Both the position numbers and the translations under genes were made by a program. This document shows, in pieces, positions 1 through 12,170 of a stretch of DNA of 18,856 nt. The first letter of the stretch is position 1. Each line of letters opens with the position of its first letter. The notes under the pieces are model-generated. The model had not been told where the DNA came from. It ran no database searches and worked only from the letters and a program-made list of their open reading frames with translations. Source of the DNA: a virus; UHGV virus genome UHGV-1698770. The stretch is one strand, 5' to 3'.

Positions 1-58
1 TCGAACCTGCCGATACCATGCTAATGAGACATGTGAGACGCCCTTTCTCTATACCCGC
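1..58 (-). tRNA. partial tRNA, 3' part cut by window edge; probable anticodon CAU (Met or Ile2 type)
   Basis: Minus strand reads GCGGGTA-TA-GAGA..TCTC (D arm) - CATGT/CTCATTA/GCATG (anticodon arm) - ..GCAGGTTCGA (T arm start) and runs off the window. Position 37 is U, which is unusual, so isotype is uncertain. Confidence 0.45.
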
Positions 59-150
59 AATTCTTAATGACCAGACCAAATCTCTTCTTTGTCCGATTTA
101 CCTTCAGATGAATAAGATTAAGTTTGCTGTAATTGGTCTTCTGTCAAAAC

Positions 151-228
151 TGGCGTTCCAGAAGGGATTTGAACCCTCAGATGTCCACTTTGAAAGAGTG
201 GTGACTTTACCATTTTGTCTACTGGAAC
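151..228 (-). tRNA. tRNA-Glu (anticodon UUC), CCA encoded
   Basis: Minus strand: acceptor GTTCCAG/CTGGAAC, anticodon stem CCACT/AGTGG with loop CTTTCAA (U33, UUC, A37), T arm GAGGG-TTCAAAT-CCCTT, discriminator G then CCA. Confidence 0.8.
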
Positions 229-235
229 ATTAATT

Positions 236-430: not shown

Positions 431-459
431 ATATTAAAGGGTATTAAACACATTGTCAA
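431..459 (-). promoter_or_regulatory. sigma70-like promoter TTGACA-N17-TAATAT upstream of the tRNA cluster
   Basis: Minus strand TTGACA (459..454), 17-nt spacer, TAATAT (436..431). The -35 sits in the loop of an 8-bp inverted repeat AAGGGTAT/ATACCCTT (437-466) just downstream of the vWA gene stop. Confidence 0.5.
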
Positions 460-477
460 TACCCTTTTTAAAACTTT

Positions 478-1893
478 TTACCAGATATAACGGTCAATCA
501 TTACTGCTTTGAGCATTACGCTGATTGGGTCAAACTTCTCACCACCAAGCAGAGCTTTTAAAGTGGCTGGAGAGAAACCAGATACCATTGCTACACCGTT
601 ATCCTTAACAGACACTTCGCAAGTACCATTACGGTTTGCTAAGTACCAGAATACCAGTTGTGGCATTTCGTATCCAGCTTTTTTGTACTTACTCTGAATT
701 GCTTCAAAGTTTGTACGACCGTTAGCTCCATCAACCTGATTGAACTCCATATCGGAGAAGATGATAAGCTTACTTGGCATATCTTTCTGAGTCAAGTTGT
801 TTCTTTTGCCTGTCTCAAGAATGCGGTCAAAAGCTGCTTGTAAGTTAGTTGAGCCATATTCAACGTGTCGCATCACCTGACGATGACGGTTTCGTAAATC
901 ACCACTCAGTTCGATGAAGTGAGGGTTTGTTGAATAAACCATCAACTCATTCTTAAAGCAACCTGTATTGCGTTCTGCTACATACAAGGCAAGTGATACA
1001 CCAATATCCAGAGCAGTAATGGAGCCAAAATTCACCCAAGACATTGAACTTGATACATCAGACATACACAAGATGTTTTCACCTTCTGCCATCCAGTTTG
1101 GTAGTGCTTTCCACTGCTCATTAGCAACATCTGCATTACCATGCTTGACAGATTTAATCACATCGTATGGGTAAACAGCGCCAGCATTAATCTTAGCCTC
1201 ACCTTTTGATAAGGACTCAATGTAAGCTTTGTAACGTTCTCCATCCTTACGGTTAAACAGTTTTTGGTAACGTGCAGCAGCAAGTGAAGGAACCTTACTG
1301 TAGTCAATCTTGCCAAACTCATTAGCAGAGATTTTTTGCTCAACTGTATCAGATAGTGCAGATAACAGTGTGCGGTAATCTTTCTCGCTCAAGTTGGCAA
1401 ACTTGCAGAAACGTTTTACAAACTGCTTATGACGTGGTTTGACTCGTGGTAACCACTTAGCCGCCAAACCTGCTGTTGCAGGGTCTAGTAATGCTGCTTC
1501 TAAGTGTTTAAAGGCATCTGTCTCGAAACGAGTACCTACGAAGATTTTGAAGTCATCAAAACGACCAAGTTCTGCAATCTTATCCATAATGCGAAGAACC
1601 TGTGTAGGCTCTAAAACTTTATCTTCAATTGCTTGAAGCAAAACAGTTCTGAAGGCTTTACGCTCACCCATACCTTCTCGTATATCTCGCATATGCAGTA
1701 AAATACGAACTGCAACATCAACATCCTCACGCAAAGCTTTGTAGAACAAGTCTGGTAAGATTTCTACATTGCTACGGCTTGAACCAGCAGCTTTGTAAAA
1801 GTCTACAAGAGCAGACATTGATGAAGTATGGTTTACAGCACCATTTTCAGTTCGACCTGCATGAAGGTGCGCATGTTTAAATAATTCGCTCAT
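478..1893 (-). CDS. vWA domain-containing protein with large N-terminal helical region (Ro60/TROVE-like or DUF2828-like architecture, unverified)
   Basis: 471-aa ORF, ATG at 1893 with GAGAG-rich RBS. C-terminal third has vWA/MIDAS-type blocks (DVSSSM, YGSTNLQAAF, KLIIFSDMEF). N-terminal ~260 aa has no hydrophobic segment. Confidence 0.85.
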   Translation of the reverse strand: MSELFKHAHLHAGRTENGAVNHTSSMSALVDFYKAAGSSRSNVEILPDLFYKALREDVDVAVRILLHMRDIREGMGERKAFRTVLLQAIEDKVLEPTQVLRIMDKIAELGRFDDFKIFVGTRFETDAFKHLEAALLDPATAGLAAKWLPRVKPRHKQFVKRFCKFANLSEKDYRTLLSALSDTVEQKISANEFGKIDYSKVPSLAAARYQKLFNRKDGERYKAYIESLSKGEAKINAGAVYPYDVIKSVKHGNADVANEQWKALPNWMAEGENILCMSDVSSSMSWVNFGSITALDIGVSLALYVAERNTGCFKNELMVYSTNPHFIELSGDLRNRHRQVMRHVEYGSTNLQAAFDRILETGKRNNLTQKDMPSKLIIFSDMEFNQVDGANGRTNFEAIQSKYKKAGYEMPQLVFWYLANRNGTCEVSVKDNGVAMVSGFSPATLKALLGGEKFDPISVMLKAVMIDRYIW

Positions 1894-3975: not shown

Positions 3976-5357
3976 TTAAAGCAAAGACTTACCCAGACTT
4001 CAAAGAGTTTGTAAAAGGTTTCGTTGCAAACGTAAAGGCTGGTAAGAGGTATGATTTTAGAACATATCAAGAAGCTATTTTACCACTTACCTATAGTTCG
4101 TATTGGCCTGAAGCTGATATTGCAGAAGTTAAGGAGTTTGATTACGAGCCAGACTATAAAGTTCCATTTAGTGATGAGTTGCTTTACAGCATTGGCGCTC
4201 AAATGAGAACTTCTGACTTCTTCATGGACTTACAATATGCAATTATCAATGGTAAAGACGTTGATACAGTTTATTGTGAATGGCTGGCAAGAGTTAAACC
4301 GTTCTCAATGTTGAATGCTAAGTTGAAGGATGCTATCAAGCCACCATCAATCACTCAGCAACCAACCAATCAAACAGTAAATGAAGGGGGTACACTTACC
4401 CTGAGCGTTATTGCAACTAATGCCACTGGATATCAATGGAAAAAGGGTGGTGAGGATATCACCAGCGCCACATCTGCAACCTACACAAAACAGTCTGTAG
4501 CACCCTCTGATGCTGGTTCTTATACTTGTGTTGTGTCTGGAGAGGCTGGGACAACTGTTACCTCAGATGCGGCAACAGTTACTGTCAACGCACTGCCTGT
4601 TATTACACAGCAACCTTCTAGCCAGACTATCAATGAGGGTGGAAACATCAGCTTGGGAGTGACTGCAACGGGTGCAACGGGTTACCAGTGGAAGAAAGAT
4701 GGCTCTGACATTCCTTCGGCTACAGAGGCTACCTATAGCAAGTCTGGTGCGCTGCCAGCAGATGCAGGTTCATACACTTGCGTTGTAACAGGTGCAGGTG
4801 GTTCTGTTACTTCTAGCCCTGCAACTGTCACAGTAAATGCTTTGCCAGTTATTACCAAGCAGCCAACAAATCAGGTAGTTAATGAGGGTAACTCTTTGAC
4901 ACTGAGTGTTGAGGCTACAGGTGCAGAAGGTTACCAATGGAAAAAGGACAATGTGAACATCCCTAGCGCAACTGGTGCGACTTACACGAAAGCTAACGCA
5001 GTTCCTGCCGATGCTGGTTCCTATACCTGTGTAGTTACTGGTGCAGGTGGTACAACAGCCACATCTAACGCAGCAACAGTTACTGTGAATGCACTTCCGG
5101 TAATCACTCAACAGCCAACCAATCAAGAAATCACTGAAGGTGAGACCTTAACGCTGAATGTTGTGGCAACAGGTGCGACAGGTTACCAGTGGAAGAAAGG
5201 TGAGGAAGACATCCTCGATGCAACTACTGCAACTTACACCAAAGAAGGTGCAACCACTGCTGATGCAGGAAACTACACTTGTGTAGTGACTGGCGCAGGT
5301 GGCTCTGTAACATCTAATGCGGCAACAGTTACAGTTAACCCAGCAGGGGAGGCATAA
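3972..5357 (+). CDS. Ig-like repeat protein: N-terminal domain plus four tandem ~83-aa Ig-like domains (Hoc-like decoration-type architecture)
   Basis: 461 aa. Four repeats of ITQQPTNQ..NEG..L.L.V.ATGA.GYQWKK.G..I..AT.ATYTK....DAGSYTCVVTGAGG..TS..ATVTVNALPV, with the W and Y-x-C signature of Ig folds. No signal peptide. Start overlaps upstream stop (ATGA). Confidence 0.9.
   Translation: MIKAKTYPDFKEFVKGFVANVKAGKRYDFRTYQEAILPLTYSSYWPEADIAEVKEFDYEPDYKVPFSDELLYSIGAQMRTSDFFMDLQYAIINGKDVDTVYCEWLARVKPFSMLNAKLKDAIKPPSITQQPTNQTVNEGGTLTLSVIATNATGYQWKKGGEDITSATSATYTKQSVAPSDAGSYTCVVSGEAGTTVTSDAATVTVNALPVITQQPSSQTINEGGNISLGVTATGATGYQWKKDGSDIPSATEATYSKSGALPADAGSYTCVVTGAGGSVTSSPATVTVNALPVITKQPTNQVVNEGNSLTLSVEATGAEGYQWKKDNVNIPSATGATYTKANAVPADAGSYTCVVTGAGGTTATSNAATVTVNALPVITQQPTNQEITEGETLTLNVVATGATGYQWKKGEEDILDATTATYTKEGATTADAGNYTCVVTGAGGSVTSNAATVTVNPAGEA
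4341..5340 (+). repeat. four tandem direct repeats of 249-252 bp encoding the Ig-like domains
   Basis: Repeat unit starts near 4344, 4596, 4845 and 5097; diverged but clearly alignable at nucleotide level; locally higher GC than surroundings. Confidence 0.85.
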
Positions 5358-6659: not shown

Positions 6660-6952
6660 TGAGTAAAGTACAGGTTGTTTTCCCTATTTGTGACTTCTCA
6701 CTAGAGCGTGAACTTGACCTGTACGAAGAAATTACTGACGAGATTATCTGGTCTGTTGTAGAAGAGGCTATCAAGAAACTGTATGGTGGCCTCTTAAACC
6801 CATCAAGTAAAAAGCTCAATACTAAACAAGTAGCTGACCCATACGTTTCATATGATGCCTACAACAAACCTTTTGAGAATACCTGCTTTGACCTTATGGT
6901 AGGTAATAACAAAGTCAACTATTTCTTCGTCAGAGAGTTTAACGATGAGTAA
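6659..6952 (+). CDS. hypothetical acidic protein (97 aa)
   Basis: Start overlaps the upstream stop (TAATG); continuous ORF. Confidence 0.65.
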   Translation: MSKVQVVFPICDFSLERELDLYEEITDEIIWSVVEEAIKKLYGGLLNPSSKKLNTKQVADPYVSYDAYNKPFENTCFDLMVGNNKVNYFFVREFNDE

Positions 6953-7289
6953 GCTCCATGTCACAGTTTACAAAAACTTCTCAGATATCAAAGAGTCTTT
7001 AACAAATAAGCTTGACTTACAACGTAAAAGACTCTTTTTAATGTATGACATAGACAACTACAATCATCCTAAAGAGTTTAACTACAAAGATGGTACGAAG
7101 GTTGTTGAATTTGAAGATTCTGTAACGGTGTATGTCAAGCATGACTTACCAGCAAAGTACATAGGGATGTTAGAGTACTACATATTCAAACATACAGGTA
7201 TGCGTGGTGAAGCTGTTAAGATATCTTCTATAGAAGTTTTTGAGAAACCTAACACACAACTTAAAAAGTATTTAATGAGGAAACTGTAA
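6945..7289 (+). CDS. hypothetical protein (114 aa)
   Basis: ATG overlapping the 3' end of the upstream ORF by 8 nt. Confidence 0.65.
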   Translation: MSKLHVTVYKNFSDIKESLTNKLDLQRKRLFLMYDIDNYNHPKEFNYKDGTKVVEFEDSVTVYVKHDLPAKYIGMLEYYIFKHTGMRGEAVKISSIEVFEKPNTQLKKYLMRKL

Positions 7290-7924: not shown

Positions 7925-7942
7925 AGTTTCTGGAGAGTAGAT

Positions 7943-8488
7943 ATGGCTAAAGTGAAAGAACACGATAAAATCATTTTGTATGTTAAACAGAATCCTTCAA
8001 AGAGTGTTGAGGCTGTTGTAACACACATCTCGCACAATGGTACAGTTTATTTCCGACCACTGAAGAACTTAGACTTTGACACAACACCAAACCACACATT
8101 CAGTACTTCTGCAAGACTGTGTGCAGGAACTGTATACTCAACTGCTGAGATTGAGTCCTTATCTTTCACAGGCGCTTACAAAAACTTTATAGGGATTGCT
8201 CTAAAGGACTCTGAAGAATCTTTTAAATTTTTCATGGAGACTAATAAAGGTTGTTACACGCATGTTATGCCAGTCTATAAGAAAGTTGACACAGAGCTTA
8301 CCAGTAAGTGCGAAGAAATTAGTAGTGACCTGAAGGAGCGCAAAACAGCTACTCAGAATGCCATTTACATCATTGAGAGGAACCATTTAGAAGTTCTTTT
8401 CAGAGATATGCTAAAAGCTGGTTTTACTCCAAACGAAATTACAAAAGAAACACAACGCCAGTTCAGAAACGCTATGGTGAAAGAATGA
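7943..8488 (+). CDS. hypothetical protein (181 aa)
   Basis: ATG with GGAGAG RBS 6 nt upstream. Confidence 0.7.
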   Translation: MAKVKEHDKIILYVKQNPSKSVEAVVTHISHNGTVYFRPLKNLDFDTTPNHTFSTSARLCAGTVYSTAEIESLSFTGAYKNFIGIALKDSEESFKFFMETNKGCYTHVMPVYKKVDTELTSKCEEISSDLKERKTATQNAIYIIERNHLEVLFRDMLKAGFTPNEITKETQRQFRNAMVKE

Positions 8489-11640: not shown

Positions 11641-11880
11641 AAATATCCTTAACAATCTCTTAACAGTTCTCACATTTTCTTAACAACTCTTCAAAGGTCT
11701 TAACAGATTCTTAACAGAACTAACAAGGCTGTAACAAGTTCTTAACAGTCGATACATGGTCTTTACAGAGTCTTAACAGATGACTAACAAGAGCTAACAA
11801 GTTAATTTTTAAGAGTTATTTTGTTAAGATAATTAACAAGTTCCTAACAAGTATTTAATCTTTTTAACAAGCTATTAACA
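11641..11880. repeat. array of at least 15 TAACA(A/G)-core motifs (TCTTAACAG / CTAACAAG) phased at 10-11 bp
   Basis: Core starts at 11650, 11661, 11681, 11701, 11712, 11721, 11732, 11743, 11774, 11785, 11795, 11834, 11845, 11865, 11876; successive differences are 9-11 bp or multiples. No ORF in any frame. Confidence 0.7.
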
Positions 11881-12062
11881 TGGTCACTATCTCTTTCTTA
11901 TCGTTCCCTTTCCCTCTTAGTGATTCTTTAAACATACCTCTTAAAAGCTCTCTATAGCTCTTTATAAGCTCTTTTAAGCCTCTTCCTAGTATCTATCCCC
12001 CAACTGTACAAACACCTCTTTATAGAGCTTTACAGGAGCTTTTAAGGCTATGTCAAAGACTC

Positions 12063-12170
12063 TTACAAGGCTTTTACGTGGTCTTAACAGAGATTTAACA
12101 AGGGGCTAACAAGTCTCTAACAAGCATAACTATGTAGGGATTGTTAAGAAATTGTTAAGAAAATGTTAAG
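12063..12170. repeat. second cluster of the same motif: direct copies then three inverted copies (TGTTAAG)
   Basis: Direct copies at 12085, 12096, 12107, 12118 (11-bp spacing); inverted copies starting 12142, 12153, 12164 (11-bp spacing); orientation switches around 12125-12140. Confidence 0.6.

Follow-up and report, generated by a model that had tools for sequence, protein, structure and literature searches.

YrlA is a tRNA-like Y RNA that is bound by bacterial Ro60 and is built from a V hairpin, a T and a D arm and, between these arms, a closed hairpin that resembles an acceptor stem (PMC4201824). It is accompanied by shorter hairpins of the YrlB type, which carry the same protein-binding motif. 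An earlier survey of phages, in which mycobacteriophage ET08 was used, was restricted to proteins annotated as TROVE, and therefore the DUF2828 lineage of proteins was outside its scope. The tRNA operon of phage T4 contains the species 1 and 2 RNAs (rnaC, rnaD), which are small, are not tRNAs, are freed by tRNA-processing enzymes, and have an unknown function. Here we analyse a spacer between tRNA genes of the virus genome UHGV-1698770, from which a stretch of 18,856 nucleotides (the window) was studied. The window shares 99% identity with phages of the Felix O1 type (Felixounavirus). The spacer occupies positions 60–150 of the minus strand, is bounded by the 3′ end of tRNA-Glu and the 5′ end of tRNA-Met, and contains an element, at 71–141, that is located ~330 nt downstream of a gene for a Ro60-like protein (478–1893) on the same strand.

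The spacer is a member of a conserved, covariation-supported RNA family that is tightly linked to the Ro60-fold gene. It probably represents the gene of a small structured non-coding RNA, which would be a Y-RNA-like partner of the phage Ro60-like protein and would be released by tRNA processing. The case for this interpretation is entirely comparative. According to a first-pass annotation of the sequence, the spacer plausibly encodes a processed small RNA that is not a tRNA. The proposal is supported by the covariation-backed family, the position of the element on the tRNA-sense strand, the flanking tRNA-processing sites, and the finding that the spacer is neither a tRNA nor a pseudogene, the stability of the putative RNA being presumed. 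That annotation had taken into account neither the gene for the Ro60-like protein nor the three additional copies of the element just beyond the window. Neither Rfam 15 nor the literature that could be searched, from which subscription journals were largely absent, yielded an earlier description of the elements, and no expression data were found.

RNA elements linked to Ro60-like genes

A scan of six loci with homologues of the Ro60-like gene showed elements with the arrangement stem–ACAGCAA–loop–stem right beside the gene and on its strand. Eighty further loci were obtained from viral contigs. With loci nearly identical to Felix O1 set aside, 81 loci, many of them mutually related, were scanned with a strict descriptor composed of a 7-bp stem, one to four nucleotides, ACAGCAA, a loop, and the complementary stem. 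The descriptor matched 63 times on the gene strand and 7 times on the opposite strand, as compared to 7–21 matches per shuffle. More than half of the gene-strand matches (39 of 63) were at most 500 nt from the gene.

A covariance model, R1, was constructed from 28 cleanly aligned short elements from phages outside Ounavirinae. The training elements contain 19 distinct stem sequences, a count that is no test in itself because the elements were chosen for pairing. The calibration of the model was shortened, and its E-values are therefore rough. Applied to both strands of the window with filters off, R1 produced one significant match, at 141–71 on the minus strand (28.3 bits, E-value 4.4e-6), and the next-best match reached 13 bits (E-value 0.13). 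Across the 81 loci (930 kb, both strands, E-value of at most 0.1), 75 matches were found on the gene strand and none on the opposite strand. Most of the matches were within about 2 kb of the gene, 47 of the 75 were outside the training set, and 49 of the loci contained at least one. Because the element family adjoins genes for Ro60-like proteins in many unrelated phages, it is probably the RNA partner of that protein rather than a junk spacer. R1 found nothing in the tRNA region of T4 or in the rest of the Felix O1 cluster. In Erwinia phage Coenus (Kolesnikvirus), the syntenic cluster comprises ~26 annotated tRNA genes, and the 84.8-kb genome contains neither a homologue of the Ro60-like gene (best tblastn E-value 0.35) nor an R1 match. 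The elements therefore track the gene and not tRNA clusters as such.

The core of the window element matched by R1 (71–141, minus strand) covers model positions 1–63 in full. The 5′ strand of an outer helix, UGAC (143–146), pairs with positions 68–71. It is followed by an invariant AGA (140–142), which forms the 5′ side of an asymmetric internal loop with the G at 72 opposite (columns 7–9 and 33 of alignment A3, all invariant). The 5′ strand of the inner helix, AGACCAA (133–139), pairs with positions 73–79. The conserved single-stranded segment UUACAGCAA (124–132), made of a two-nucleotide linker and ACAGCAA, is the signature of the family and a candidate site of protein contact. The subsequent loop of 44 nt (80–123) is without conserved sequence and varies in length and sequence across the family. 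The alignment and the pairing counts define the 3′ strand of the inner helix, UUGGUCU (73–79), and the bulged G (72) with the 3′ strand of the outer helix, GUCA (71–68), which together occupy 68–72. The first-pass annotation had correctly identified the pairing of AGACCAA (139–133) with TTGGTCT (79–73), which encloses 53 nt on the minus strand. The spacer thus has the order of the family descriptor: AGACCAA, the linker UU, ACAGCAA and, after the loop, UUGGUCU followed by G. The ACAGCAA motif is invariant in all 28 training elements, which come from unrelated phages, and has at most one substitution in the Felix-type copies. The termini of the spacer (30 nt at the 5′ end and 22 nt at the 3′ end) are invariant between Felixounavirus and Mooglevirus, whereas its middle cannot be aligned between Felixounavirus and Mooglevirus or Suspvirus.

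The element is present four times, always in one orientation, in the tRNA clusters of Felixounavirus, Mooglevirus, and Suspvirus. In Felix O1 (locus L001, NC_005282, reverse strand), the copies are positioned in the Glu–Met gap, which corresponds to the window spacer, in the Met–Asn gap, and, as two adjoining copies, in the 428-nt gap after tRNA-Asp. The three copies outside the window, at 3981–3907, 3527–3443, and 3440–3299, are unannotated. R1 scored 28.3, 35.1, and 29.0 bits for copies 1, 2, and 3 of this locus, respectively. For the analysis of covariation, copies were located by sequence motifs alone and not by pairing at variable positions, the variable loops were removed, and 18 distinct versions were aligned. 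The 4-bp outer helix, the AGA/G internal loop, and the 7-bp inner helix were retained throughout, with standard pairs in 198 of 198 cells. Compensatory changes on both sides were found in five of the eleven pairs, and three of the four pairs of the outer helix were affected, which reads UGAC/GUCA, UUAC/GUAA, GAGC/GCUC, or UUGC/GCAA in various copies and phages. The last two pairs of the inner helix switch between AA/UU and GU/AC from copy to copy. All one-sided changes result in G·U wobbles, which are valid solely on the tRNA-sense strand. When the pairing partner was slid by one to three columns as a control, only 20–47% of the cells paired.

Each phage has three short copies, including the window spacer, which resemble YrlB, and a long copy 4 (~140 nt, L001 3440–3299), which resembles YrlA. 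Long elements, namely the Felix-type copy 4 and those of other phages, were folded independently. They share the terminal stem and ACAGCAA with the short elements, and contain a V hairpin, a T arm (GGUUCGAUUCC), a closed acceptor-like hairpin, and a D arm. The sequence of the acceptor-like hairpin differs between genera, and its self-complementarity is kept. A third class of long elements (L023 5277–5369, L024 3134–3231, L028 150–279, L031 1266–1372, and L041 5734–5828) has the same terminal stem and ACAGCAA, a conserved insert GAACCUUUCUGGAGGGGAAAGCAAAAACUCGCC, and no tRNA-like module. In Cronobacter phage S13 (L014), two "tRNAs" of 121 and 113 nt (6895–7015 and 7025–7137) directly precede a YrlA-like element (7154–7288). 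They score 56.9 and 40.9 bits with the Rfam tRNA model, are not called by ARAGORN, and may be intron-containing tRNAs or tRNA-like RNAs. In Aeromonas phage 4_4572 (L013), about ten tandem short elements of 48–66 nt fill the interval between tRNA-Cys and the Ro-like gene (3988–4959). Another contig with a Ro-like gene (L064) contains a match to the cyanobacterial small RNA NsiR1 at 7928–7982, which scores 38.6 bits, just short of the gathering score of 39, and a transfer-messenger RNA gene at 11715–12132 (88 bits).

Comparison with Y RNAs and other small RNAs

The gene at 478–1893 (minus strand) encodes a 471-residue protein with the Pfam domains DUF2828 and DUF7788/vWA (E-values 3e-30 and 2e-43). 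Homologues are present in 710 of ~50,700 phage records, with hosts as diverse as Vibrio, Mycobacterium, Listeria, Campylobacter, and Bacillus, and a large database contains more than 3,300 such proteins. An AlphaFold model, calculated with 45 homologues, has a predicted local distance difference test score of 89.7 and a predicted template modelling score of 0.89. The top twelve fold matches in the PDB are all Ro60 or TROVE proteins, aligned over the full length, with E-values from 6e-9 to 8e-7 and template modelling scores of 0.40–0.66. They include Xenopus and human Ro60, Deinococcus Rsr, and Ro60 of Thermus phage phiLo; isolated vWA domains rank next. The gene product is predicted to have the Ro60 fold. 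The TROVE domain is invisible at the level of sequence, both in Pfam and in searches of the PDB by single sequence and profile, and NCBIfam provided nothing useful, so that the decisive evidence on the protein is the fold search alone. Mycobacteriophage proteins annotated as "Ro-like RNA binding protein" share 33% identity with the product of the window gene over its full length. Phage Bas63 is a Felixounavirus, and we infer that its protein gp130 is the orthologue of the product of the window gene. In a preprint, gp130 was described as encoded directly upstream of tRNA genes, as having a Ro60-like structure, and as countering the Ppl defence gene; the authors speculated that some of the downstream "tRNA genes" are Y RNAs, none of which was identified (PMC11482910).

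The phage elements were compared with YrlA and YrlB of Salmonella and Mycobacterium, Yrn1/2 of Deinococcus, and Yrl1/Yrl2 of Thermus phage phiLo. Like these Y RNAs, they are encoded within a few kilobases of a gene for a protein of the Ro60 fold and on the same strand. Their 5′ and 3′ ends pair in a stem with an internal loop, the 5′ strand of which leads into a conserved motif, and a genome contains several paralogues, one with the V/T/acceptor/D module and the others simple hairpins. In contrast to the Y RNAs, the motif of the phage elements is UUACAGCAA and not GGUCCGA, GNCGAAN0-1G, or CGAA. The presumed partner belongs to the DUF2828/DUF7788 family, which resembles the solved structures of Ro60 only in fold, and the element genes are embedded in a tRNA operon. 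Unlike in YrlA, the tRNA-like domain is absent from the window copy, whereas it is present in paralogous copy 4. The Y_RNA and YrlA models of Rfam matched nothing in five other loci at the gathering score.

The first-pass annotation had drawn a parallel to the small RNAs of T4. The parallel holds for gene organisation, since both are RNAs inside a tRNA operon, and fails for motif and sequence, as the element has nothing in common with rnaC and rnaD. Homology to the T4 RNAs was rejected, because blastn-short returned only 7-nt chance matches (E-value 1.0) and the T4 region had no R1 match. Among the matches to the Ro-like gene listed by tblastn, there was no Tequatrovirus (T4-type) record, T4 itself not having been searched. 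The only Straboviridae among the listed matches were Schizotequatrovirus phages of Vibrio and Cronobacter phage S13.

Among the Rfam families that are unrelated to tRNAs and match the elements in these scans, the best is that of Dictyostelium Class I RNAs (RF01414), with all scores below the gathering score of 41.5. Felix O1 copies 1–3 scored 19.7 (E-value 0.44), 20.1, and 15.3 bits. The array of Aeromonas phage 4_4572 gave seven matches of 19–30 bits, the best with 29.6 bits (E-value 0.003), and two other contigs gave 28.9 and 26.9 bits. Class I RNAs and phage elements have in common a short terminal stem, which opens with a conserved G whose partner is the C in a conserved 3′ CUG(U), and genomic A residues before the G. 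In both, (CC)UUACAGCAA directly follows the 5′ strand of the stem, and the remainder is variable and rich in A and U. Nine of the eleven positions of the Class I motif CCUUACAGCAA are identical in the spacer, including all five that are universally conserved, and the spacer also has the closing G–C pair and the 3′ CUG, whereas the length and the outer helix differ. The stems of the phage elements are 7–8 bp long, and the Felix-type copies have an additional outer helix, unlike Class I RNAs. The window copy is longer than the 42–65 nt of Class I RNAs.

Class I RNAs come from eukaryotic genes, which have a DUSE promoter motif upstream and probably contain a terminator for RNA polymerase III. They are abundant, have an unknown mechanism, have been reported as unique to Dictyostelia, and their levels fall in development. 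No Y RNA is known to have been reported for D. discoideum, a point at which no literature search was aimed. It is possible, though rather doubtful, that the phage elements and Class I RNAs are of one kind, namely Y-RNA-like partners of a TROVE or Ro60-fold protein. In favour of this link, besides the shared terminal stem, motif, and 3′ CUG, the D. discoideum TROVE-domain protein DDB_G0281913 (Q54T94) is abundant in vegetative cells and declines through development (PMC12821622 supplement), a trend that parallels that of Class I RNAs. Against it, the binders of Class I RNAs known from pull-down are Rnp1A/CIBP, GuaB, NdkC, and an Alba-like protein, with no Ro-like or TROVE protein among them; canonical TROVE proteins elsewhere use a motif of the CGAA type; and all the Rfam scores are below threshold. 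The pull-down protein DDB_G0281243 was considered as a DUF2828 protein, and this was refuted, since it is the Alba-like protein.

Alternative explanations of the spacer

Several observations qualify or weigh against the interpretation of the spacer as the gene of a Y-RNA-like partner. A perfect 7-bp inverted repeat is present in 1064 of 5000 shuffles of the 92-mer (21%), and therefore the 7-bp stem by itself is not evidence. The folding energy of the spacer is ordinary (−16 kcal/mol, z = −0.73 relative to shuffles). The canonical Ro-binding motif is missing, as there is no CGAA in the 92-nt sequence, and the Y_RNA (RF00019) and YrlA (RF02553) models of Rfam match neither the spacer nor the long paralogue at E-values of up to 10. 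No element was detectable within the fetched flanks of 32 of the 81 loci that contain the gene. Furthermore, the elements tend to adjoin tRNA genes, so that part of their association with the Ro-like gene could come from a common dependence on tRNA-processing enzymes and not from protein binding. The reality of the predicted feature rests on the comparative evidence.

This tendency would also be expected if the element were a cis-acting hairpin for processing or insulation of the tRNA transcript, for example an entry site for RNase III or RNase E or a folding insulator, which would neither act as a free RNA nor be linked to the Ro-like protein. The window element is placed between tRNAs and would be excised by tRNA processing, elements directly follow tRNA genes elsewhere (tRNA-Cys in L013, tRNA-Met in L016), and the unremarkable folding energy is also in agreement with such a role. 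However, the large tRNA clusters of Coenus, which lacks the gene, and of T4, for whose type no match to the gene was listed, contain no elements, and neither does the rest of the Felix O1 cluster. In mycobacteriophage Snenia, three elements directly follow the Ro-like gene, and no tRNA separates them or comes after them. An invariant single-stranded motif of seven nucleotides in phages of Proteobacteria, Actinobacteria, and Campylobacter is unexpected of a generic hairpin, and the long paralogues carry the tRNA-like module that is specific to Y RNAs. We consider a processing hairpin unlikely.

The link to the Ro-like gene would be retained if the element served as an operator of that gene or as a decoy that titrates the protein, and not as a cofactor that directs its activity. 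Many elements are located immediately upstream of the gene. In Vibrio phage PG216 (L012), an element at 4963–5008 (R1 score 18.3 bits) covers the ribosome-binding site and the ATG start codon of the Ro-like homologue, which suggests autoregulation there. The window copy, however, is downstream of the gene, beyond a terminator-like hairpin and two promoter-like sites. The genome contains four copies, including the tRNA-like one, and Aeromonas phage 4_4572 has its array of about ten. Trans-acting RNAs therefore fit better than an operator, and the operator or decoy function is quite improbable.

The elements could act at the level of DNA, as promoters, targets of homing endonucleases, or recombination sites in a tRNA cluster rich in HNH genes. 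Copy 1 starts with TTGACA and copies 2 and 4 with TTTACA, which resemble −35 hexamers, and the Felix O1 cluster contains three annotated HNH endonuclease genes. Nevertheless, the G·U wobbles, to which all one-sided substitutions lead, pair only in RNA of the tRNA sense, which argues against a DNA-level element, and all 75 family matches are on the gene strand. Such repeats are a very improbable explanation. A promoter at the 5′ TTGACA of the spacer was rejected, since there is no acceptable −10 hexamer at a distance of 16–19 nt and the scan found no promoter in the spacer.

It is hardly credible that the spacer is a degenerate tRNA or pseudogene, for example a remnant of the tRNA-Ala that occupies the Glu–Met interval of Kolesnikvirus flanked by TTTGACAG ... 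TGGTCTGGTCAAA, which resemble the ends of the element, because ARAGORN and the Rfam tRNA model (RF00005, E-values of up to 10) found nothing in it, it has no T-loop or D-loop, its conserved parts are the termini and ACAGCAA and not the positions conserved in tRNAs, and it matches the independent non-tRNA model R1. The statement of the first-pass annotation that no GTTC T-loop or cloverleaf could be recognised in the spacer was thus borne out. In Coenus (L009, minus strand), TTTGACAG and TGGTCTGGTCAAA are positioned at ~887–880 and 768–756, around tRNA-Ala, and may be the remnant of an element.

Gene organisation and proposed role of the element

The gene order on the minus strand, from high to low coordinates, is the 471-residue open reading frame (ORF; 1893–478), a hairpin and two promoter matches, tRNA-Pro, tRNA-Glu, the spacer, tRNA-Met, and further tRNAs. 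With both ARAGORN and Rfam, tRNA-Pro (TGG) was located at 236–312 and tRNA-Glu (TTC) at 151–228; tRNA-Pro opens the transcription unit of tRNAs and small RNA. The two tRNA genes are separated by 7 nt, as noted in the first-pass annotation. The 5′ part of tRNA-Met (CAT), which is truncated by the start of the window, occupies 1–59 and corresponds to L001 3983–4059 in Felix O1. In the record of Felix O1, which is 99% identical, the 5′ end of this tRNA-Met corresponds to window position 59. The spacer, presumably the small RNA in its primary form or its precursor, therefore extends from 60 to 150. The first-pass annotation was therefore right about a long gap after tRNA-Glu, but gave its length as 93 nt instead of 91 nt. 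Its description of the cluster as otherwise tightly packed does not hold, since the gaps between the tRNAs of Felix O1 are 7, 91, 83, 69, 5, 428 nt, and so on. An ORF that it had listed over the spacer (18–233, plus strand) is present and encodes 71 residues.

At the gathering score, all Rfam matches in the window and in five other loci were tRNAs. ARAGORN found a tRNA-Ser (TGA) and a second tRNA-Met (CAT) at L001 1293–1382 and 2999–3075, which are unannotated in the RefSeq record of Felix O1. A consensus scan, the only evidence for promoters here, identified two sigma-70-like candidates on the minus strand: TTGACA-17-TAATAT at 431–459, and TTGACA-18-TAAAGT with a TG at 339–368, upstream of tRNA-Pro. 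A 12-bp hairpin at 436–467 (minus strand) directly follows the stop codon of the Ro-like gene and includes the −35 hexamer of the first of these candidates, so that a terminator-like structure and a near-consensus promoter overlap there.

Based on the comparison of the loci, a mechanism can be proposed for the spacer as the gene of a Y-RNA-like RNA. The RNA would be transcribed with the tRNAs from the minus strand, starting at the promoter-like sites that precede tRNA-Pro or as a read-through product of the Ro-like gene. Established tRNA processing implies that its 5′ end would be set by 3′ processing of tRNA-Glu, and its 3′ end by the cut of RNase P at the 5′ end of tRNA-Met. The released RNA would adopt the fold shown by covariation, in which the outer helix of 4 bp, the AGA/G internal loop, and the inner helix of 7 bp are followed by UUACAGCAA and the variable loop. 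The genomic association, the joint absence of gene and elements, and the analogy to Y RNAs suggest that the module formed by the stem and UUACAGCAA binds the Ro60-like protein encoded at 478–1893. By analogy with Ro60–Y RNA particles, we speculate that the ribonucleoprotein gates or tethers the ring protein for the surveillance, degradation, or repair of RNA during infection. It may also contribute to the counter-defence reported for the Bas63 homologue.

Felix O1 has long been used as a Salmonella typing phage and as a reference phage. Some of the long "spacers" in phage tRNA clusters are probably genes, including four that are unannotated in Felix O1. The resemblance to Class I RNAs offers a cheap and direct test of what these long-unexplained RNAs of Dictyostelium might be. 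For the widespread DUF2828/DUF7788 proteins of phages, the elements provide candidate RNA partners, which have a defined structure and a signature motif and can be searched for with a working model, and a second recognition motif appears to be tied to this divergent lineage of Ro60-like proteins.

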